Virus record (IMG/VR): IMGVR_UViG_3300043540_000327
DNA from: a virus
Length of the DNA: 17,701 bases
Strand: one strand, 5' to 3'
Of the stretch, positions 977 to 12,462 are shown piece by piece. The notes beneath the pieces were generated by a model. It did not search any database. It was not told where the DNA came from and saw only the letters and a list, made by a program, of their open reading frames with translations. The number at the start of each line of letters is the position of its first letter. Position 1 is the first letter of the stretch. The position numbers were made by a program, and so were the translations under genes.

Positions 977-1810
977 ATGAGAACCATCCTCGTCTATACA
1001 CACCCATTCAATTTCACGTCCGGCGGCATTGTCGTGCTGCACAAGTTGTGTCATTTGCTCCGTCAAAAAGACCAGAACGCACGGCTATGGATGGTCGATG
1101 ACGACTGGACGACCTGGGCGACCTGGCCGGAGTATGATACCCCAATAGCGAACGGCAAAGTTGATCCTCGGGATTGCGTCGTCATCTACCCGGAGATCGT
1201 CAGCGGCAATATCCTTGAGGCCAAACACGCCGTTTGGTGGCTGCTGAATAAACCTGGATTTTGGGGAGGCACGTTTGAAGCCAAGCCCGAAGACTTGATC
1301 GTCACCTACTCGGATCATTTCTCGGCCGATTACCCCAACGCCGAACAATTGCGAGTCATTGAATGCTGGTTTGAATATTTTAGCCCCGACCCGACGATTG
1401 TACGCAAGGGTGGATGCTATGCCATGCGTAAGGGTGCCATCATGGGCAAGCAGCCAATTCCAGAAACGGACGGTCTGAAGCCGATTGTGGATTCGAGTTA
1501 TGATATAGCGTTCTTGCGAAACACGTTCCGTGAGTCGGAGGTATTTTACAGCTACGACTCCGCAACCTTCCTGTCCCTGCACGCCGCCCTGTGTGGATGT
1601 ACCAGCATCGTCATCCCGGATGAAGGTATGACTAAGGATCAATGGCTAAATAAGTTCCCACTCATGAAATATGGCGTTGCTTATGGCCTGGAGGACCGGG
1701 CCTGGTCCGAAACCACCAAGGATAAGGTGCGGGACCATCTGATGGAAGAAGAAGCGAAATGCCTGCTCACGGTTGACAACCTCATCGAGCGTATCAACAA
1801 CTTGACATAA
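977..1810 (+). CDS. Hypothetical protein, possibly a GT-B-like glycosyltransferase
   Basis: An ATG at 977 follows an AAAGGAG RBS (967-973), 9 nt after the acetyltransferase stop. The C-terminal segment ESEVFYSYDSATFLSLHAALCGCTSIVIP loosely resembles the EX7E/'EAmaxGxPvI' donor-binding motif of GT-B enzymes. It sits next to the aminotransferase/acetyltransferase pair. Confidence 0.5.
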   Translation: MRTILVYTHPFNFTSGGIVVLHKLCHLLRQKDQNARLWMVDDDWTTWATWPEYDTPIANGKVDPRDCVVIYPEIVSGNILEAKHAVWWLLNKPGFWGGTFEAKPEDLIVTYSDHFSADYPNAEQLRVIECWFEYFSPDPTIVRKGGCYAMRKGAIMGKQPIPETDGLKPIVDSSYDIAFLRNTFRESEVFYSYDSATFLSLHAALCGCTSIVIPDEGMTKDQWLNKFPLMKYGVAYGLEDRAWSETTKDKVRDHLMEEEAKCLLTVDNLIERINNLT

Positions 1811-1876
1811 AGGCACGTTTCTTGTTATCATCGTACCATTAGTTTTCTTCGCCTCCACTATTTGGAGAGCAGAATC

Positions 1877-2880
1877 GTGCCGACGTTCAAAATCATTTCC
1901 ATCGTCAAAGACGGCACCTACCCGCTACGTCTCTTGCCTGGCAATCCCGTCTTCGTCAACCGGCAGTGGCATCGGCTTGGCATTGGCGTCACCAATGCCA
2001 AGAACTTCCTGTGTACACGGATGCCGACGAACAAGGACCGTCTGACCGGCGCTCAGAAGTACGAGGGCTATTGCGCCATCTGCGAGGCGGCGATCTCGTG
2101 CTACAAAAAAGGCCAGGAGAGCGATTTCCGAAAGCTGAAAGCTTTTGAGCGGTCCTATTACTGCGCCATCAATCGTGACGAGCAGGACATCGGCGTTCAG
2201 CTTTTCACCTGCGGCAAGCAGATTCAGTCGATCATTTTATCGGCCTCGCTGGGTGACGCTTTCGCCAAGAAGCACCCCCTGGGTGATGTCTTTAACTATC
2301 ACACCGGCCGGGACTTCATACTCATCCGCAAAACAAATATCAGTGGTTTCCCCGATTACGGCGAGTCTTATTTCTCCCCGCCGTATCCGGCCGGCACCGG
2401 CCACGAAATTCAGCAATGGATGACGAACCTCATCGACCTCGACAGCATGTTCACGCCGCCTACGGCCGAAACGGTGCAGAAGGCCCTGCAAGAGTATTTC
2501 CACGTTCCGGCCAAGCCAAGACCATCAAGATTTCCGTCAAGCAGGAAGAAGGCGATGCCATTGCGGGCATTCGGATATATTCCAACCCGCATAGCATCTG
2601 GGACTCACCGCAGTGCGTCCTGGTTAGCCGGGAAGCGTTCTGCAACATGGTCGCTGACCGGGCCGACCGGGGCGTCTACTACCACGCCAACGGCTATTAT
2701 ATCATCCGGGCCGAAATTACCGACACCGGCGAGGTCTGGGCACGGGTCGTCCCCGAAGACCCCTGCTTGGAGGCCAGTCTCCAGGCGATCCAGAAGAAAT
2801 ACGAAGACACCAAGAAGGAACCGGAATACCGCATTTTCGAGAAGAAGATGCTGGATGCGTACCACCAGCGACCCGTATAA
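1877..2880 (+). CDS. Hypothetical gp32-like ssDNA-binding protein with a His/Cys3 zinc motif, apparently interrupted by a -1 frameshift near 2513-2521
   Basis: A GTG at 1877 lies 7 nt after a GGAGAG RBS (the track ORF begins at a TTG at 1862). Frame 2 reads protein-like text up to ..QEYFHVPAKP (about 2518). After that, protein-like text continues only in frame 1 (KTIKISVKQEEGDAIAGIRIYSNPHSIWDSPQCVLVSREAF...KKMLDAYHQRPV, stop 2878-2880). The frame-2 continuation to 3061 is Arg/Ser/Thr/Pro-rich junk. The switch falls at the short direct repeat gccaag|ccaag. The N-terminal segments LRLLPGNPVFVNRQWH and H-x13-C-x19-C-x2-C recall the T4 gp32 IRFLP...PFAILVNH region and its His/Cys3 zinc site. Confidence 0.5.
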
Positions 2881-3123
2881 TTGGATATGTACGAGTCAAG
2901 CTTTATCTACGGCAATAGCGATAACGCCAAGTGGCCGAAGACGGCCTGGCCTCGGGACGGTTTCCTGTTGTTCTGCGAGAAGCACGGCTTTCCCTACCGG
3001 GAAGGCCACAAGTGCCCCAAGTGCGAAGACAGAGGCATCAAGACGAATTATCGCAGCATAGACGAACCCTGGACGGCACCCGATGACCGACGAGGAATGG
3101 GAAGCACTGAAGAAGAAGTATAA
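2881..3123 (+). CDS. Hypothetical small zinc-ribbon protein carrying the YRSIDEPW motif
   Basis: ORF of 80 aa with a possible TTG start at 2881 or ATG at 2887. It contains C..HGFPYREGHKCPKCE followed by K-T-N-YRSIDEPW (3049-3072). It overlaps the next gene by 41 nt. Confidence 0.45.
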   Translation: MDMYESSFIYGNSDNAKWPKTAWPRDGFLLFCEKHGFPYREGHKCPKCEDRGIKTNYRSIDEPWTAPDDRRGMGSTEEEV

Positions 3124-4506: not shown

Positions 4507-4777
4507 TTATGACGAATACTTCCAATTATGCAGGACGGCGAGCGTGCCGGTAGGTAGCATGGAGACACAACAAGTAATCGACGTATTGAAGGAAAAGTAC
4601 CCACACGCCTTCCGCATGGTGAAAGACGAACCTCACCTGGAGGTCGCTGTCGCCCTGAGCGGCACGACGTTGCCGCTGATGAACGATTGGGCACGTCGGA
4701 TGGGCGAGGGTGCGACCTTCGACCTTTTCCACAAGAGTCTATCAGAAGTCCTGATGCAGCAGGAAGGAGCGGCTTGA
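4496..4777 (+). CDS. Hypothetical protein
   Basis: ORF of 93 aa; GGAGGGAG lies immediately upstream of the ATG at 4496. Its stop overlaps the next start (TGATG). Confidence 0.45.
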   Translation: MLVDYDEYFQLCRTASVPVGSMETQQVIDVLKEKYPHAFRMVKDEPHLEVAVALSGTTLPLMNDWARRMGEGATFDLFHKSLSEVLMQQEGAA

Positions 4778-5310
4778 TGTCGAAGCTGATCGACTTTTAC
4801 CTGGAAGAAGGAACCGATACCGAGGGCAGAACCTTCACGGAGATTATGGCCTGGTCGGACGAGAAGTGGGAGTTCGGCCACGATTACATCCAGTGGATGT
4901 TCCCGCTCCAGGAAGAGAGCAACTTCAACCCGGACGCCCCGTTGTTGACGGAAGAGGACATCAGGCTCTTTCATGCCAACCCGGACCTGCGAAACAACAT
5001 GGTCCTGGCCTTTCACCGCTTCGTGAAGTTTCTGGGTCTGAAGTGGCTGATCGACCCGATGATCCAGGACGCTACGGTCATCAAGGCCGGCAACTTTCAG
5101 GAACGGCGGTGGATGATTTGGGACAACCCGAACCACAACTGGTTCCGCATCAGTCGTGTTCTCAAGTCCTTGAAGCTTCTGGGTTTGAAAGAATACGCCG
5201 ACGATCTATTTGCCTGCTTGAAGCGATTGCACGAGGACGAGGGCCTGGTGACTGGCAACTCGTTTCGCTATTGGCAAGAAGCGGTTGCACTTCCGACGAA
5301 ATCAGAGTAG
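4777..5310 (+). CDS. OGFr_N-like (opioid growth factor receptor conserved region family) protein
   Basis: An ATG at 4777 follows GGAAGGAGCGG. The N-terminal segment IDFYLEEGTDTEGRTFTEIMAWSDEKWEFGHDYIQWMFPL matches the characteristic start of bacterial OGFr_N-family proteins (..FY.G...D..GR.L.EI..W.D..LE..HDYIQWLFPL). Confidence 0.5.
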   Translation: MSKLIDFYLEEGTDTEGRTFTEIMAWSDEKWEFGHDYIQWMFPLQEESNFNPDAPLLTEEDIRLFHANPDLRNNMVLAFHRFVKFLGLKWLIDPMIQDATVIKAGNFQERRWMIWDNPNHNWFRISRVLKSLKLLGLKEYADDLFACLKRLHEDEGLVTGNSFRYWQEAVALPTKSE

Positions 5311-6102: not shown

Positions 6103-6131
6103 GAGAATATATAGGGGTCAGGAAGAAAATT

Positions 6132-6204
6132 GCGGGTGTAGCTCAGTGGCTAGAGCGCCACGTTGCCAACGTGGATGTCGTGGGTTCAAATCCCATCACC
6201 CGCT
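6132..6204 (+). tRNA. tRNA-Gly (anticodon GCC)
   Basis: Canonical cloverleaf. Acceptor gcgggtg/cacccgc. D-arm gctc-agtggcta-gagc. Anticodon stem ccacg/cgtgg with loop ttgccaa, giving GCC. T-arm gtggg-ttcaaat-cccat. Discriminator is T and no CCA is encoded. Confidence 0.85.
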
Positions 6205-6258
6205 CTTGAGGATTTACGGTGCCCCGGAACTTGTTCGAGGACCATAACGACTTCAGGG

Positions 6259-6450
6259 ATGTTATCACTGGCCCAACTTCGGGATGCCCTTCAGAACGGT
6301 CGTGTGTTCAAGCGAGGCACCCCGATCAAGGTGACGATACCACAGATGGCGATGCCGAATATCGTTTTCGCTGATGAGGTCCACGAAACGGTGGTGCCGA
6401 TCAAACCCAAGAAGAAATATCGCTCGATTGACGATCCCTGGGAGGCGTGA
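6259..6450 (+). CDS. Hypothetical small protein ending in KKYRSIDDPWEA
   Basis: This ATG is the first in-frame start downstream of the tRNA. The 63-aa product ends ...VVPIKPKKKYRSIDDPWEA, with the motif at 6418-6441. Its stop overlaps the next start (TGATG). The upstream part of the 6163 track ORF overlaps tRNA-Gly and is rejected. Confidence 0.5.
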   Translation: MLSLAQLRDALQNGRVFKRGTPIKVTIPQMAMPNIVFADEVHETVVPIKPKKKYRSIDDPWEA

Positions 6451-6719
6451 TGAAGTTCTGGGGCCAGCTACAGCCGACGACTCGGTATATGCTCATTAAC
6501 CTGGCCACGGCAATGGTCACGCTGACCTGCAACGACTACTGGCACGAGTATGCCTGGTTATGGTTCTCCCTCCAAATGTGTGTGACGTTGCCCACGGCGA
6601 TCTATTACACCTGGGTGACGAACAAGGAGCAACATGAGTCTTCTAACGACTTTCGAGGAACTGCCCCTGGGGACCAAGTTCGTCCTCTTGAACCAGGACA
6701 GTGGGACTATCAAATATGA
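6450..6719 (+). CDS. Small hydrophobic (about 2 TM) membrane protein
   Basis: A GGGAGG RBS lies 4 nt upstream of the ATG at 6450. MLINLATAMVTLTC..AWLWFSLQMCVTLPTAIYYTWV form two hydrophobic helices. The 3' tail overlaps the next gene and may not all be coding. Confidence 0.45.
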   Translation: MKFWGQLQPTTRYMLINLATAMVTLTCNDYWHEYAWLWFSLQMCVTLPTAIYYTWVTNKEQHESSNDFRGTAPGDQVRPLEPGQWDYQI

Positions 6720-6978: not shown

Positions 6979-7336
6979 AGCGGTATGGCCTGCCGTGCCA
7001 GTGCCATGACCCTCCGTACCACCGCCAGCCGTAATAAGGCCGGTAGTAGCGATAGTAGTACCCGTAATTCGGGTAGGTATAAGGCTGGTAGTAGAAGGGC
7101 AAGGTGATGATGGGTGCCGGCGGCGGCTCTAGCTCAACGGGTGGCGGCACCACGGGCAGTGGAACCCACCGCCAACCGTAATTGGGATAGTACCTCCACC
7201 TGCCCTGTACTTGAGCGAGATGTGCAGGGCGGTCGGCGTTTTGCCTTTCCTGGTGGACGTTGGGCTTCGGCGGGTCTTTGACGGGTTCGTAGTCGGTCGG
7301 CAAAACGAATAGGGCGACGGCTAAGAGATTGTACAT
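6977..7336 (-). CDS. Secreted or signal-anchored protein with a C-terminal region extremely rich in Tyr/Trp/Pro/Gly/Arg
   Basis: A strong - strand RBS (AAAGGAGGTATT-ATG) precedes it. The N-terminus MYNLLAVALFVLP is hydrophobic. A PPPVELEPPPAP linker follows. The C-terminus reads YYQPYTYPNYGYYYRYYRPYYGWRWYGGSWHWHGRPYR. No + strand ORF competes for this span. Confidence 0.6.
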   Translation of the reverse strand: MYNLLAVALFVLPTDYEPVKDPPKPNVHQERQNADRPAHLAQVQGRWRYYPNYGWRWVPLPVVPPPVELEPPPAPIITLPFYYQPYTYPNYGYYYRYYRPYYGWRWYGGSWHWHGRPYR

Positions 7337-7370
7337 AATACCTCCTTTATTGAATTATAACGGAGTGGAT

Positions 7371-8030
7371 ATGCAGATCAAAACCATCGAAGTGAAGTGC
7401 CGCTTCGGAATGGTCCCCGTGAGCGTCGGTGACAAATTCAATACCGGCGACGGCGAATGGGAGGTTCGGGAAATCGACACCCGCAACACCATCAACGGGT
7501 ATTGGGAGATTGATTGCCCTATTCTGATCTGCCACAATCCGGCTCGACCCGATTACGGTGCCCACGCCATCTATGCGGCACTCAAACGACCCGGACTGGT
7601 TTGCCACCTGCTGGACGAGGCGAACCTGAAGAGCATTACCTTCGGCAACCTGGGTGCTTTCTCGGCCGAGTGGGTCGGGATGCTGAAGAATCGGGAGGCA
7701 ACCTGGGAAAATCGGTTTGCGGCGCCGGTGGAAGCTGAGGGCCTGTTGGTTTTCCTGGATACGCACATTGACGACCAACTCCGGGACGAGGGCAATGCCC
7801 GTGAGATCGTGCGGCTTGTGCAAAATACACGCAAGAATGCTAAATTAGAGATGCGTGACGAAGTGGAATTGGTCCTGGAAGCCAAGACCGATGAGTTTCG
7901 GCTGGCAATAGAGGCGATGAAAGAGTATATTTGTTATGAGACTTCGGCAACCCTGGTGGCGAGCCTGGAAGGAGAAGGAGTAGTCGCCAGCGATGAGAAG
8001 TCCGTCAGCATTAAGGTCAAGAAGAAATGA
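7371..8030 (+). CDS. Hypothetical protein with an isoleucyl-tRNA-synthetase C-terminal-like segment
   Basis: The ATG at 7371 has a GGAGTGG RBS. EGLLVFLDTHIDDQLRDEGNAREIVRLVQNTRKNAKLEMRDEVELVLEA...AMKEYICYETSATLVA matches the IleRS pre-zinc-finger block as remembered (ALDTTLTPEL..EGLARELVRRVQQLRKDAGL.VSDRI.L....EH.AYIGAETLA). The true start is 35 nt from the divergent - strand gene. Confidence 0.5.
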   Translation: MQIKTIEVKCRFGMVPVSVGDKFNTGDGEWEVREIDTRNTINGYWEIDCPILICHNPARPDYGAHAIYAALKRPGLVCHLLDEANLKSITFGNLGAFSAEWVGMLKNREATWENRFAAPVEAEGLLVFLDTHIDDQLRDEGNAREIVRLVQNTRKNAKLEMRDEVELVLEAKTDEFRLAIEAMKEYICYETSATLVASLEGEGVVASDEKSVSIKVKKK

Positions 8031-8455
8031 TCCAAGATTACAAGATACTGTTCGTGAAGCAGGAGTACCGTCCTTACGCCGAGGAAGGCGACTGCCCGGA
8101 ACTGAGCGTGCAGGAGATGTCGGTCGAGAAGCTTCTGGAGATCAAGGAGGTCCAGGACGAACTCAAGCGGCTGGGTTGGAAGGATGTCAAGAAGATCGAG
8201 GAGCGTGAACTCAAGCTCGCCCTGGACAAGAAGTTTTTCATCCTTTCCCGCATGGGCGGTGGGGCTTACGCTCAATCCTATCAAATCGACATTGACAATC
8301 TCCAGGCTTGGGAAGTAAACAACCTCAGCCGGGATGCGATCATTGCCCAGCAGGTGGACCTGAAAACCATTCTTTCGGAGGACCAGTATAAAGAAAATCC
8401 AGAAGGAGCGCAAGGCGCAGGAGAACCAGCGTCGGCAGGCTCAAGCCGCCGCTAA
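8027..8455 (+). CDS. Hypothetical protein
   Basis: ATGA overlap with the upstream gene. Protein-like text runs to about residue 120. The tail ENPEGAQGAGEPASAGSSRR is doubtful; see the finding on an alternative frame. Confidence 0.5.
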   Translation: MIQDYKILFVKQEYRPYAEEGDCPELSVQEMSVEKLLEIKEVQDELKRLGWKDVKKIEERELKLALDKKFFILSRMGGGAYAQSYQIDIDNLQAWEVNNLSRDAIIAQQVDLKTILSEDQYKENPEGAQGAGEPASAGSSRR

Positions 8456-8538
8456 ACGTCGGCTGGAACGGAAGAAGGCAAAGGAAATTGAGCGTGCCAA
8501 GAAGGTACTCGAACAACAAGGATTAAGGGTTATTTCCG

Positions 8539-8841
8539 ATGATTCCAGCGAAGAAACTGACTGAGTTGAAGGCTGCCATCGCCACGGTCCTGACGCATGA
8601 CATTGGTGTCGGCCTCCCGGTCGATGACCTGTGCGTGTATCGTGACCCAGGCGGTCTGTTCGCCGTGGATTTCACCCCGGTCGGCAGCCTGGAGGCCATC
8701 GACGGCCTCAGCGAAGAACAGAACCGTCAGATCACTGAAGACGGAGAAATCAACGACTACTTCGAGACGGCCGAGGAAGCCGCCGAGGAGTACCTGAAGC
8801 TCCGCTTCGCCCTGAAAAAAGAAGGCGTTCTCATTCGATGA
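8539..8841 (+). CDS. Hypothetical acidic protein
   Basis: ORF of 100 aa with an acidic C-terminal half (EEQNRQITEDGEINDYFETAEEAAEEY). Its stop overlaps the next start (ATGA). Confidence 0.5.
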   Translation: MIPAKKLTELKAAIATVLTHDIGVGLPVDDLCVYRDPGGLFAVDFTPVGSLEAIDGLSEEQNRQITEDGEINDYFETAEEAAEEYLKLRFALKKEGVLIR

Positions 8842-9323
8842 AGATCGACATTTTAAGTCACCGCAACCTAGTCGAGCATCTTGCTGCCAATAGCAAGATG
8901 CTCGACGCTATCATGATCGTCAACCACAATCCACGCTGGGCCAACGACGAACAAGCCGAGCGGATTCGCCTCGCCAAAGAACACGCCCGTGATTTACTCG
9001 TGCTGACGTTTGACGACACGACTTTCCACCGGGACGGCTACCAGGCCCCCGAGCCTCGCCACGTCCGGGAGGCCCTGGAGTGGGCCAAGGACCGGGAGGA
9101 GTTTGTCGTCTCCTGCACGGCCGGCAAGTCACGGAGTTCCAGCATCGCCTATGTTCTTGCATCCAAGAAGATTGGGCCGGAAGAAGCGATTCGGATACTC
9201 GATCCGAACCGGCATATCCCCAACGAATGGGTGGTGAAGCATGGCTCTGAACTTCTCGATAACCTCCAGGTGTGGGACTTGTTCCTGGAATACCAGGCCA
9301 CAGCCCCCGCCTATAAATGGTGA
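8838..9323 (+). CDS. Cys-X5-Arg phosphatase (dual-specificity/tyrosine phosphatase fold)
   Basis: FVVSCTAGKSRSSSIAYVL matches the (V/I)HCxAGxSRSxTxxxAY(L/I) P-loop signature, and Asp-containing loops lie upstream. The protein is 161 aa. Confidence 0.6.
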   Translation: MKIDILSHRNLVEHLAANSKMLDAIMIVNHNPRWANDEQAERIRLAKEHARDLLVLTFDDTTFHRDGYQAPEPRHVREALEWAKDREEFVVSCTAGKSRSSSIAYVLASKKIGPEEAIRILDPNRHIPNEWVVKHGSELLDNLQVWDLFLEYQATAPAYKW

Positions 9324-9813: not shown

Positions 9814-10253
9814 ATATCAAGAAAGCTACCTACAGTGGACAGAACGGCCCCTTTGAAGTAGAATACGATGCCGATGCCCCGTGCCAATGCTGCGGGCTGC
9901 CGGTTGAAGAAGCTTCAATGGGCGGCACCAACGTCTGTCCGGCTTGCGACTGCGGCGTGCGACGGGACGGCGAGAAGTACAGCGTGAAGGAGATGCTGCT
10001 TCTGGGCAAGAAGGAGAAGACGCCGGAGGACTGGAAGGAAATCGAGATCGTTCGTCTGCCGTTCCAGGAGCGGATTTCCAAGATCATGGGCAGTGCCATC
10101 GTCGGCAAGGTAAGCGGCCCGATCCACGGCGCCATCGGCGCCCAGAACCTCGCCAATCAGTACGTCAAACGACAGCAAGAACTGCGGGAGAAGCATGGAG
10201 ACGAAGGACTGGACGCTGACGAAGGTGATCTCGGGGGCGCAGACCGGGGCTGA
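9810..10253 (+). CDS. Hypothetical Cys-rich protein
   Basis: CQCCG...CPACDCG zinc-ribbon-like cluster. ATGA overlap at the start. Confidence 0.5.
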   Translation: MNIKKATYSGQNGPFEVEYDADAPCQCCGLPVEEASMGGTNVCPACDCGVRRDGEKYSVKEMLLLGKKEKTPEDWKEIEIVRLPFQERISKIMGSAIVGKVSGPIHGAIGAQNLANQYVKRQQELREKHGDEGLDADEGDLGGADRG

Positions 10254-10728
10254 CCAGGCTGCGCTGCGTGCCGCCAAGAAGCTGGGCATCGCCACCGGCG
10301 GCTGGGTGCCCAAGGGCTGTCGCACCGAGGACGGTCCTCGCCCGGACCTGATTGACGAGTTCGGCCTGACCGAAACCGAAACCGACGACTACGTTGAACG
10401 GACCCATCTGAATATCGAGCATTCGGACGGTACGATCCGGTTCGCCGCCGATTTCAACTCGATTGGCGAGCGATGCACGCTGCGGGGCATTCGCAAATAT
10501 AAGAAGCCCTATTTCGATTTCGATATCAGCAAGCATTATCGCTTTGCCGACCTCCTCCGGTGGGTCTGGGATAACAACATCCACGTCCTGAACGTCGCCG
10601 GCAACCGGGAGAGTAAGCACCCCGGCATCGGCAAAACGGTGGAAGAATTCCTCATCCCTTTTTTCACGCAGCTTATTCCCCTGGAACGGGCGGAAGCGTT
10701 GCTGCGCAAAGTCCTGGAGAATGACTGA
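10195..10728 (+). CDS. SLOG-superfamily 'putative molybdenum-cofactor carrier' (PF12694-like) protein
   Basis: VISGAQTGADQAALRAAKKLGIATGGWVPKGCRTEDGPRP...ETETDDYVERTHLNIEHSDGTIRF matches the remembered family consensus (GGQTGvDraALdaA..gi.hGGWCPkGR.AEDG.i...ETpsadYaeRTewNvrDSDgTL). GGGAGAAG RBS. The stop overlaps the SerRS-like start. Confidence 0.6.
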   Translation: METKDWTLTKVISGAQTGADQAALRAAKKLGIATGGWVPKGCRTEDGPRPDLIDEFGLTETETDDYVERTHLNIEHSDGTIRFAADFNSIGERCTLRGIRKYKKPYFDFDISKHYRFADLLRWVWDNNIHVLNVAGNRESKHPGIGKTVEEFLIPFFTQLIPLERAEALLRKVLEND

Positions 10729-11516
10729 TGATCGACTTTGAGCGTGGTGCGAAGACGACCGGCTCCAAGTTCTACTTCCTGACCGGCCAGAAGGCCGTCA
10801 TGGAGTGGAACCTTATCAACTTCATGATCTCCCACCATCGGCACAACGGCTACGAGTTCGTGATCTCACCCTACCTCATTAACAAGCAGGTGGGTGAGTG
10901 GGCCGGCATCAACAAGCAGGTGGGTGAGTGGGCCGGCATCCTGCCTCGCTTTGAGGGCGACTATTACCAGACCCAGGAAGGACTCATGCTCATTCCCACG
11001 GCCGAGACGCCGCTCGTGGGAATGCACGCCGACGAAATCTTCCAGGAGGAAGAACTGCCGAAGCGTTATGTCGCCTTCTCGCCGTGCTTCCGCAAGGAGG
11101 CCGGTGCTTATGGTGCCAAGGACAAGGGCTATAAGCGGGTCCACCAGTTCCACAAGATCGAGTTGTTCGTGATTTGCGAACCCACGGCGAGCGAGTTTCA
11201 GCACAACCAGATGGTTGGCGATGTGGTCAGCCTGATGAAGAAGCTCAAGGTCGAATATCGCCTGCGGGAATTGCCGCCCGAGGAGCGTAGCCCGGTATCG
11301 GCCAGGACCATCGACGTGGAGGTCAAGGTCGGGGACGAGTGGCTGGAAGTGTCATCCATTTCCAACACGCTTGATACCCAGAGCAAGCCGGCACAGATTC
11401 GCTTCAAGCCGAAGTGCGGCGGCAAGAACATCAAGTGCCATTTGCTCAACGGCTCCGGCGTAGCCTTGCCCCGGCTGATGTTGGCCCTGGCCGACCGTAT
11501 GGCAGAGTGGAAATGA
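10728..11516 (+). CDS. Seryl-tRNA-synthetase catalytic-core homologue lacking the N-terminal tRNA-binding arm (SerRS-like, amino-acid:carrier-protein-ligase-like architecture)
   Basis: It aligns by eye with E. coli SerRS from about residue 105 to the end of motif 3. [20 protein letters not shown] matches [29 protein letters not shown] is motif 1. [21 protein letters not shown] is motif 2 (fRsE). [15 protein letters not shown] is motif 3. There is no coiled-coil arm and no C-terminal tail. It contains an in-frame 10-aa duplication. Confidence 0.8.
   Translation: [262 protein letters not shown]
10881..10940 (+). repeat. Perfect 2 x 30-bp tandem duplication inside the SerRS-like gene
   Basis: aacaagcaggtgggtgagtgggccggcatc occurs twice without a mismatch and duplicates [10 protein letters not shown] in frame. 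Confidence 0.9.
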
Positions 11517-11980
11517 AGAAAAAACGATATAAGCGAATTATATGGATGCTGCGTTCGATCCATGATCGCCTCCTGCAACTTGAGGTCCAGATGACTGAGA
11601 AGAAAGAGGCCACGAAGCCCGTACTGATGAACGAGGAGGAACTTCGCCCCGTTTACCACGCCGGCTGGGATGCTTTTTCCCCAGACCCAGGCACCACAGA
11701 CGTGATGTATTGTCGTGTTTGCGACGAGAAGATGGACGTGGAGCGGAATGTCAACGGTCCTACCGGCATGGCCGAGAGCATGGCGGGTCGCAAACACCTG
11801 CATGACTCTTTCCGCTGTCCGAATGTCGGCCAGAAGTGGCACAACCAAGTGCTGAAGCTGAAACAGGAAGCTCGGAGTACGGCGAGCGCTTCCGTGGAGA
11901 ACCTGATCCATCAGGAGATTGAACAGATTCTCAAGACTCGCCAACACACCAAGGATGTAGGACCATCGGGATTGTTCTAA
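11513..11980 (+). CDS. Hypothetical basic protein with a Cys/His cluster
   Basis: ATGA overlap start giving MKKKRYKRIIWML... (155 aa). The earlier part of the track ORF is an out-of-frame shadow of the SerRS-like gene. It contains CRVCDEK...H..H..C. Confidence 0.5.
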   Translation: MKKKRYKRIIWMLRSIHDRLLQLEVQMTEKKEATKPVLMNEEELRPVYHAGWDAFSPDPGTTDVMYCRVCDEKMDVERNVNGPTGMAESMAGRKHLHDSFRCPNVGQKWHNQVLKLKQEARSTASASVENLIHQEIEQILKTRQHTKDVGPSGLF

Positions 11981-12396: not shown

Positions 12397-12462
12397 CTTT
12401 TGTGCTTTACAATTGGCACATTCACATTGGCGGAAGACCCACAACATAACTCTGAGGGATTT

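Follow-up and report, generated by a model that had tools for sequence, protein, structure and literature searches.

An arm-less, C-terminally clipped seryl-tRNA synthetase core from large phage-like contigs

Canonical bacterial seryl-tRNA synthetases (SerRS; profile TIGR00414, structures of Aquifex 2dq3, E. coli 6r1m and T. thermophilus 1ses) share a class-II fold with invariant ATP, Mg and serine residues. Their N-terminal coiled coil is the main recognition element for tRNA-Ser, and the tRNA binds across the dimer (PMC10570016). The present analysis concerns an open reading frame (ORF) at positions 10728..11516 of the IMG/VR virus record IMGVR_UViG_3300043540_000327, a stretch of 17,701 nucleotides referred to below as the window. 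The product of this ORF is a bacterial-type class-II SerRS catalytic core without the N-terminal arm. It shows 35–44% identity to the canonical enzymes over the core and has a motif-2 loop of the same length, but it lacks the ~148-amino acid (aa) N-terminal domain with the coiled-coil arm and the ~21-aa C-terminal tail (ENYQ...P..L), falls under the equivalog cut-off, is changed at FQARR, W200 and F189, and is found on phage-like contigs only.

A natural precedent for an arm supplied in trans is the mitochondrial SerRS2alpha of insects and other invertebrates, which has likewise lost the arm and kept the active site; the insect enzyme shows no activity by itself and works when paired in a heterodimer with SLIMP, which bears an arm and a dead active site (PMC10570016). 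The two proteins belong to different lineages, as mitochondrial SerRS matches the profile of the phage family at ~1e-32 and the bacterial enzymes at 1e-71. Unlike SerRS2alpha, the phage core also loses the C-terminal tail. A dead partner of the SLIMP type did not turn up near the phage cores, which would leave the host enzyme or an unrecognised protein as the partner. Arm-deletion mutants of E. coli SerRS were reportedly described by Borel and co-workers in 1994 and by Vincent and co-workers in 1995. In such engineered proteins (PDB 9qof) the core folds without the arm and binds a seryl-adenylate analogue, and in heterodimers the arm of one subunit serves the active site of the other. These mutants lose only the tip of the coiled coil, keeping the base of the N-domain and the C-tail; the truncation of the phage core is more radical and naturally selected.

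Cores that charge acceptors other than tRNA are also known. Amino acid:[carrier protein] ligases go back to the zinc-site SerRS of methanogen type, and their genes adjoin that of a carrier protein. As far as the work of Mocibob et al. 2010 is cited in PMC9437257, Bradyrhizobium Bll0957 and Agrobacterium Atu2573 are SerRS-derived cores of this kind without a tRNA-binding domain; the phage core, unlike them, is of bacterial type, and none of its neighbours in the window encodes a carrier protein. HisZ, EpmA/PoxA, GluQRS/YadB and AsnA are likewise stand-alone synthetase cores without a tRNA-recognition module, with known non-canonical acceptors or regulatory roles and diverged active-site or specificity residues (reviewed in PMC9437257), whereas the phage core keeps the SerRS site unchanged, in a tRNA-Ser context.

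The product matches the Pfam family tRNA-synt_2b with an E value of 2.9e-22. Against the NCBIfam model serS it covers profile positions 151–398 of 418 and scores 238.8 bits (the cut-off of 301.65 is not reached), and its C-terminus lies 13 residues past the motif-3 Arg. The closest solved structure is that of the Aquifex enzyme 2dq3 (residues 151–398, E 6e-48). The AlphaFold2 (AF2) model, calculated from 32 relatives, has a predicted local distance difference test score (pLDDT) of 80 and a predicted template-modelling score (pTM) of 0.81. The top matches of this model in a structure search are SerRS catalytic domains (TMq ~0.8), and the E. coli arm-deletion mutant 9qof is among the matches (TMq 0.81). 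A longer N-terminus is impossible, because an in-frame TGA precedes the ATG by two codons (Table 1), and no arm can therefore come from an alternative upstream start; at every related locus the frame can be followed upstream for at most ~26 codons until it meets a stop. The original prediction, which was made from the letters of the window alone, had described an arm-less SerRS paralogue with class-II motifs 1–3 and the serine-site context retained, and this part of it stands.

The comparison with 124 full-length cellular SerRS, in which the median family member falls short by 148 N-terminal and 21 C-terminal residues, confirms the serine site in particular. All positions universally invariant in the cellular enzymes, R221 excepted, are kept by the family (P48, PTAE, R122, E124, G129, G134, RVHQF, K143, E145, R178, D196, E198, E207, S209, S212, N213, Q218, H238, NGSG, A246 and R249). 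In motif 2 (FRKE...RVHQFHKIE) the family and the cellular enzymes share R122, E124, G129, G134, R137–F141, K143 and E145 without exception, and none of the catalytic Arg and Glu residues of motifs 2 and 3 is lost. The motif-2 loop, which touches the acceptor stem in SerRS, has 13 residues in the family, the cellular length. The EVSSISN segment of the core presumably corresponds to E345/S348 of the T. thermophilus enzyme (1SES). The dimerisation residues of motif 1 (P48, H37 and G41) are retained as well. Compensation for the missing arm by extra positive charge was considered and set aside: relative to the cellular enzymes the charge rises by only +0.5 in the motif-2 loop and by +1.5 in residues 214–237, which is not decisive.

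The core is not an isolated sequence. In a search of 5.8 billion proteins more than 120 clusters were found at 59–77% identity to it, nearly all of them 245–265 aa long, while the few longer members carry unrelated N- or C-terminal extensions. In an alignment of 32 sequences every member starts with MxDFERGAK and ends a few residues beyond motif 3, and the segments PTAE, FRxE, RVHQF.K.E, EVSS.SN and LNGSG.A.PR are invariant. Compared with its relatives, the window gene has a ratio of nonsynonymous to synonymous substitution rates (dN/dS) of 0.07–0.18, and the family is under purifying selection. In the neighbour-joining (NJ) tree the family forms a single clade on a long branch. Only three representatives of it occur among 1.84 billion proteins representative at 50% identity. 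The remaining short matches in that set retain FQARR and the ENYQ tail, and are therefore N-truncated gene calls of ordinary SerRS rather than other arm-less bacterial-type lineages.

In respect to distribution, members are present on the IMG/VR viral contigs IMGVR_UViG_3300049215_000771 (532 kb) and IMGVR_UViG_3300020429_000529 (498 kb) and on metagenomic contigs of up to 673 kb, others being ~40–200 kb, and the metagenome scan shows a clean identity gap between ~60% and 44%. No member was found with family-specific peptide patterns in 185,579 bacterial and archaeal species genomes (one per species), where the best matches, at ≤44%, are ordinary full-length SerRS, and none in 50,697 deposited phage records, where the best match is 37%; the one such record that was looked at in detail, from a Brevundimonas jumbo phage, encodes a full-length SerRS of 433 aa. 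The family is a conserved lineage of minimal SerRS, seen so far only on large phage-like contigs. It is apparently undescribed, and full-text literature searches returned no description of an arm-less phage SerRS or of a link between cpYpsA and SerRS. The only named public record of a member is the 104.5-kb contig Ga0209518_1000125 (locus L021), where the gene is complete, although labelled 'Serine-tRNA ligase, partial' in a Candidatus Woesebacteria metagenome-assembled genome (MAG); we suspect that this contig is phage sequence binned into the MAG. Elsewhere the label is 'seryl-tRNA synthetase' (JGI).

The surroundings of the core were scanned for tRNA genes over 10 kb in ~20 independent loci (L numbers in Table 1). 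Genes for tRNA-Ser lie within this distance in 8 of the loci, on at least five branches of the tree, and serine accounts for 24 of the 127 flanking tRNAs. Rough binomial estimates, which ignore shared ancestry, are 4e-4 for the locus count (with an assumed baseline of 10%) and 2e-3 for the serine fraction. The phage tRNA-Ser (for example 1174..1262 in L020) are canonical, with G1-G2, G73 and a long variable arm of 5–8 bp. Translation genes are also found near the core in relatives, and comprise RF-1-domain, GatB_Yqey, TyrRS/TrpRS-like, GluRS and MetRS genes.

Table 1. Features of the window and tRNA-Ser genes around the core in related loci
Feature	Sequence	Position	Strand	Details	Basis
gp32-like single-stranded DNA-binding protein	window	1862..3061			
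cpYpsA-type SLOG gene	window	10195..10728	+	PF12694, 135.9 bits (cut-off 26.2), E 1.1e-39	Pfam
In-frame TGA	window	10722..10724	+	two codons 5' of the core start	sequence reading
Arm-less, C-terminally clipped SerRS catalytic core, coding sequence	window	10728..11516	+	from ATG to TGA; 262 aa, or 252 aa if the duplication is discounted	
Motif 1, helix and strand	window	10803..10877	+	E26..L50, invariant P48; expected dimer interface	alignment
Tandem duplication	window	10877..10940	+	perfect, in frame, 30 bp, 2.1 copies; adds 10 aa (residues 51–60)	repeat detection, alignment
PTAE loop	window	10995..11006	+	residues 90–93; site of the serine amino group in SerRS; invariant in family and 124 cellular SerRS	
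Motif 2	window	11079..11168	+	30 residues, 13-residue loop; ATP, serine and acceptor-stem contacts	comparison with cellular SerRS
EVSSISN	window	11346..11366	+	residues 207–213; Mg/ATP site	comparison of family and cellular SerRS
Motif 3	window	11439..11486	+	16 residues	alignment
155-aa ORF	window	11513..11980	+	ATGA overlap with the core stop; kept only in the clade of the window	synteny comparison
4 tRNA-Ser	L006	0.6–2.6 kb downstream of core			
3 tRNA-Ser	L020	first begins 5 nt past core stop			
2 tRNA-Ser	L023	one ends 46 nt ahead of core start			
3 tRNA-Ser	L169	up- and downstream of core			
3 tRNA-Ser	L172	1.2–2 kb downstream of core			
4 tRNA-Ser	L173	2.4–6 kb upstream of core			
3 tRNA-Ser	L175	3.6–4.7 kb upstream of core			
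2 tRNA-Ser	L191	~7.3 kb upstream of core			

Several details of these loci are recorded here as separate observations. The tRNA arrays of L169, L172, L173 and L175 are arranged in Phe/Leu/Ser/Tyr blocks, as if by codon-table position or by long-arm type, and in L172 and L173 a TyrRS/TrpRS-like gene lies close to the arrays. Directly 3' of the core L020 has a release-factor-like PCRF+RF-1 protein (1333..2037, 234 aa), and on a branch distant from it L174 has an RF-1-domain protein (10744..11370, 208 aa) in the same place, followed by GatB_Yqey. In L191 a 252-aa protein consisting of the GluRS/GlnRS catalytic domain only (8318..9076, tRNA-synt_1c) lies 1 kb upstream of the core and is possibly GluQRS-like. 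L171 carries a transfer-messenger RNA (6121..6463) with the tag GNSYALAA. A tRNA with a CTA anticodon (amber suppressor) is found in L173 (15956..16031). Serylation of such a type-I suppressor by an arm-independent enzyme was considered and rejected, as this tRNA has A73 and a non-Ser acceptor stem, in contrast to the G73 and G1-G2 of the phage tRNA-Ser.

Our favoured reading, to which the sequence comparisons lend about even confidence, is that the core is a functional minimal catalytic subunit of a bacterial-type SerRS, in a family so far confined to large phage-like contigs. A role directed at tRNA-Ser is favoured because arrays with tRNA-Ser, and translation genes, recur across the tree, and it is better supported, if unproven, than a carrier chemistry coupled to the neighbouring SLOG gene. 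The core would make seryl-adenylate and charge the 3' end of tRNA-Ser with the serine, within a translation-supply module that belongs to the phage itself. Because the arm is missing, the tRNA would have to dock by one of two routes: either the core acts as a homodimer through acceptor-stem contacts alone, or it relies in trans on the arm of a full-length partner subunit on the other side of the dimer, the host SerRS being the most plausible donor. The SLOG protein would then be an unrelated accessory of a kind common in jumbo phages, which happens to adjoin the core in one clade.

A separate arm gene was sought with a hidden Markov model (HMM) of the arm (147 positions, from the 124 cellular enzymes), which gave no match at E≤10 in the six-frame translation of 352 kb of family loci and detected all nine of the nine viral full-length SerRS used as positive controls. 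With no phage-encoded candidate found, an arm-donating subunit would be the host enzyme. In the resulting chimeric dimer of the phage core and the host full-length SerRS, the host arm would dock tRNA-Ser, encoded by either host or phage, and direct its acceptor end into the phage active site. By analogy with the heterodimers described above such an arrangement is conceivable, though we consider it unlikely. If true, it would be a virus-host hybrid aminoacyl-tRNA synthetase, by which a phage sustains or re-tunes serylation with half an enzyme; a hybrid SerRS of this kind is undescribed for any virus.

Several observations weigh against a tRNA-charging core. In twelve of the ~20 loci, the window included, tRNA-Ser is missing over the 10 kb scanned. 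A search of ±10 kb around the cores gave no arm-bearing partner, and on two huge IMG/VR contigs only the arm-less gene was retrieved when a second SerRS was sought with a full-length-profile scan seeded by two peptide patterns (an arm-only alignment is too poorly conserved for a collection-wide scan). The phage tRNA-Ser keep the long variable arm normally read by the missing domain, so that arm-independent charging may be poor. The arm deletion in E. coli SerRS studied by Borel and co-workers in 1994 reportedly cuts the aminoacylation efficiency by orders of magnitude, with serine activation kept. The family also departs from the cellular enzymes at defined places: FQARR is replaced by NQSKP, with R221, present in 100% of the cellular enzymes, being P or variable here; R220 is not kept either, W200 is changed, and F189P and N98G are found (all near-invariant in tRNA-charging SerRS); R27W and E44F occur in the motif-1 region; and the ENxQ tail is lost, E256 and Q259 not being conserved. 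These family-specific changes could reflect altered binding of tRNA or of a partner. Finally, the window copy itself bears a 10-aa insertion that is absent from its relatives.

This insertion, which had escaped the original prediction, results from the tandem duplication listed in Table 1, and it raises the question whether the particular copy is intact. It might be impaired or mis-assembled, the duplication having arisen as an artefact of sequencing or assembly, or else through a recent mutation that disables this one member of an otherwise functional family. The repeat is perfect and confined to the window copy in the 32-sequence alignment, the sequence that contains it occurs once, on a single contig of one sample, in the 5.8 billion-protein search, and the confidence of the AF2 model falls to pLDDT <50 at residues 52–59. 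The insertion is nevertheless in frame, and its place, past the motif-1 strand and ahead of the LPRF loop, is predicted to be a surface loop; the remainder of the protein retains the near-invariant residues of the family with P47S and Y226F as the sole changes. An assembly artefact would also be improbable, because the 30-bp repeat is shorter than a sequencing read. On balance a defective or misread copy seems unlikely, although of the alternatives to a functional core it survives best.

Somewhat less probable is the model of the original prediction, by which an amino acid activated on the arm-less core goes to a carrier protein or a small molecule and the SLOG protein binds a nucleotide or ligand substrate. 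Loss of the arm removes the usual route of tRNA-Ser binding, and R220/R221 and the ENxQ tail, invariant in the tRNA-charging enzymes, are gone; in addition, one locus far from the window in the family, L174, encodes a PP-binding protein, ThiF and ThiS 2–6 kb downstream of the core. The proposed analogy to amino acid:[carrier protein] ligases did not hold. The family profile matches bacterial-type SerRS at 1e-58 to 1e-71 and the type-2 (methanogen-type) SerRS, the parents of these ligases, at 1e-8 and 0.0096 only, while the ligase chains themselves give no match at E≤10, and kinship to them is rejected. The acidic ORF 8539..8841, suggested as the carrier-protein partner, shows no PP-binding signal at E≤10, nor does any other neighbour in the window, so this candidate is rejected too. 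The fully conserved acceptor-binding loop of motif 2 and the recurrence of tRNA-Ser genes as neighbours also speak against carrier chemistry.

The association with SLOG was the other support of that model. The upstream gene, announced as a SLOG 'MoCo-carrier'-like gene, is indeed one: it belongs to the Pfam family cpYpsA, which we take to have been formerly named MoCo_carrier, and the SGAQTGAD of its translation is the N-terminal GxQTGxD loop of cpYpsA. The ATGA overlap reported between the two genes needs correction, since the junction reads TGATG and shares 1 nt (stop 10726–10728, start 10728–10730), and the ATGA is at the downstream end of the core. SLOG lies directly 5' of the core with an overlap of 1–8 nt in 7 of 7 loci of the window's clade (the window, L001 (= L002–L004) and L008–L012). 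These SLOG-bearing loci form one derived clade in the NJ tree, with eight or more other genes in synteny (among them dual-specificity-phosphatase (DSP)-like, 9442-like, 9810-like, 11513-like, 11980-like and vault-like genes and a GluRS anticodon-binding domain (GluRS-ABD) gene), and because the clade has so many genes in common the adjacency is part of a general synteny. An HMM of the seven SLOG proteins found no further copy in the same 352 kb that were scanned for the arm, and SLOG is missing from at least 14 other loci; in the other branches the neighbours are TnpB, R2K ATP-grasp, HD, RF-1, SSB and Apyc1-like genes. All-against-all clustering of the flanking ORFs gave no conserved protein partner spanning the branches, and the sole cross-branch cluster comes from the core itself, read out of frame. 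Neighbouring genes overlap routinely in this genome (9 of 29 consecutive junctions in the window, by 1 or 4 nt), and the overlap of SLOG and core therefore does not point specifically to a partnership. YpsA-like SLOG genes of viruses are reported from 31% of jumbo phages, where they mostly stand alone; their predicted targets are signals derived from NAD or ADP-ribose (PMC9503650). As judged from gene order, SLOG and the core probably do not make up a dedicated two-component system, and SLOG is probably an independent accessory gene; what remains of the earlier proposal is the arm-less SerRS paralogue beside a SLOG gene, without the SLOG-coupled, carrier-ligase-style chemistry.

A tRNA-independent generator, in which the core makes Ser-AMP and then nucleotides of the diadenosine tetraphosphate (Ap4A) type that manipulate host signalling, with SLOG sensing or processing the adenine nucleotide in the window's clade, is improbable to a greater degree. 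The ATP and serine sites are intact and the tRNA-binding domain is gone, and Belrhali and co-workers reportedly showed in 1995 that SerRS is able to synthesise Ap4A in a side reaction. SLOG domains bind or process adenine-nucleotide derivatives (PMC9503650). The sequence nevertheless offers nothing to tell such an activity from ordinary adenylate formation, the SLOG link is clade-specific, and neither the neighbourhoods of tRNA-Ser and translation genes nor the conservation of the motif-2 loop would be explained. Least probable of all is a non-enzymatic modulator that dimerises with host SerRS to poison or re-tune it, as a dominant-negative or regulatory subunit, or acts as a decoy for a host or phage factor targeting SerRS: the dimerisation element of motif 1 is retained and heterodimers of SerRS paralogues occur in nature (PMC10570016), but a pure binder would not require all of the catalytic residues to be invariant, as they are over 59–77% identity at the low dN/dS given above.

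The window as a whole looks like part of a large phage genome, with a near-continuous train of genes on the + strand and many small ORFs without family matches. The Rfam scan of the window identified three tRNAs and no leader or riboswitch. Two further synthetase-derived fragments are present. The 232-aa product of 15262..15960 (+), the second stand-alone fragment after the core, is a GluRS anticodon-binding domain (Anticodon_2, E 3.9e-20) fused to DUF2934, without a catalytic domain; the fusion is kept in L009 and L010 at 45–47% identity, and in its place L001 has two genes, one for a full-length GluRS of 443 aa and one for a DUF2934 protein of 77 aa. In the case of the third, a 233-aa ORF at 7329..8030 (+), the C-terminal 100 residues match DUF5915 (E 3e-17), which we take to be the C-terminal domain of isoleucyl-tRNA synthetases, with a weak MupB match besides; the N-terminal 135 residues match nothing, and no homologue was found in the related loci. 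Directly 3' of the GluRS-ABD gene a strong terminator-like hairpin (15963..15990, +; 12 bp, 9 of them G-C, then a T-rich tail) may end the gene train that holds the SerRS core.

Among the other genes, 12400..15207 (+) encodes 935 aa with a major-vault-protein shoulder (E 3.6e-24), a vault repeat (E 8e-10) and a long charged C-terminal region; it is kept in L009–L011 at 59–62% identity and is unusual in a phage. Companions of the locus are 4687..5310, 8838..9323 and 16542..16976, with OGFr_N, a weak DSP-like domain and DUF5522, respectively. Relatives have NADAR and DUF4326 genes (L001 16972.., L175 3390..3839), both ADP-ribose-processing domains (PMC9503650); a link of OGFr_N, the DSP-like domain and DUF5522 to the same processing is speculation.

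In general, the tRNAs and synthetases that huge phages are known to encode are usually read as complete spare parts, whereas this family keeps only the chemistry module of SerRS. The module that recognises tRNA-Ser has been discarded, yet the core sits among canonical long-arm tRNA-Ser genes. The assignment as an arm-less core corrects the public labels of the family. A core that charges tRNA by itself would be a SerRS that in nature reads the acceptor stem only; one dependent on an arm in trans would be the viral counterpart of the insect SerRS2alpha/SLIMP pair, and possibly a virus-host hybrid enzyme.

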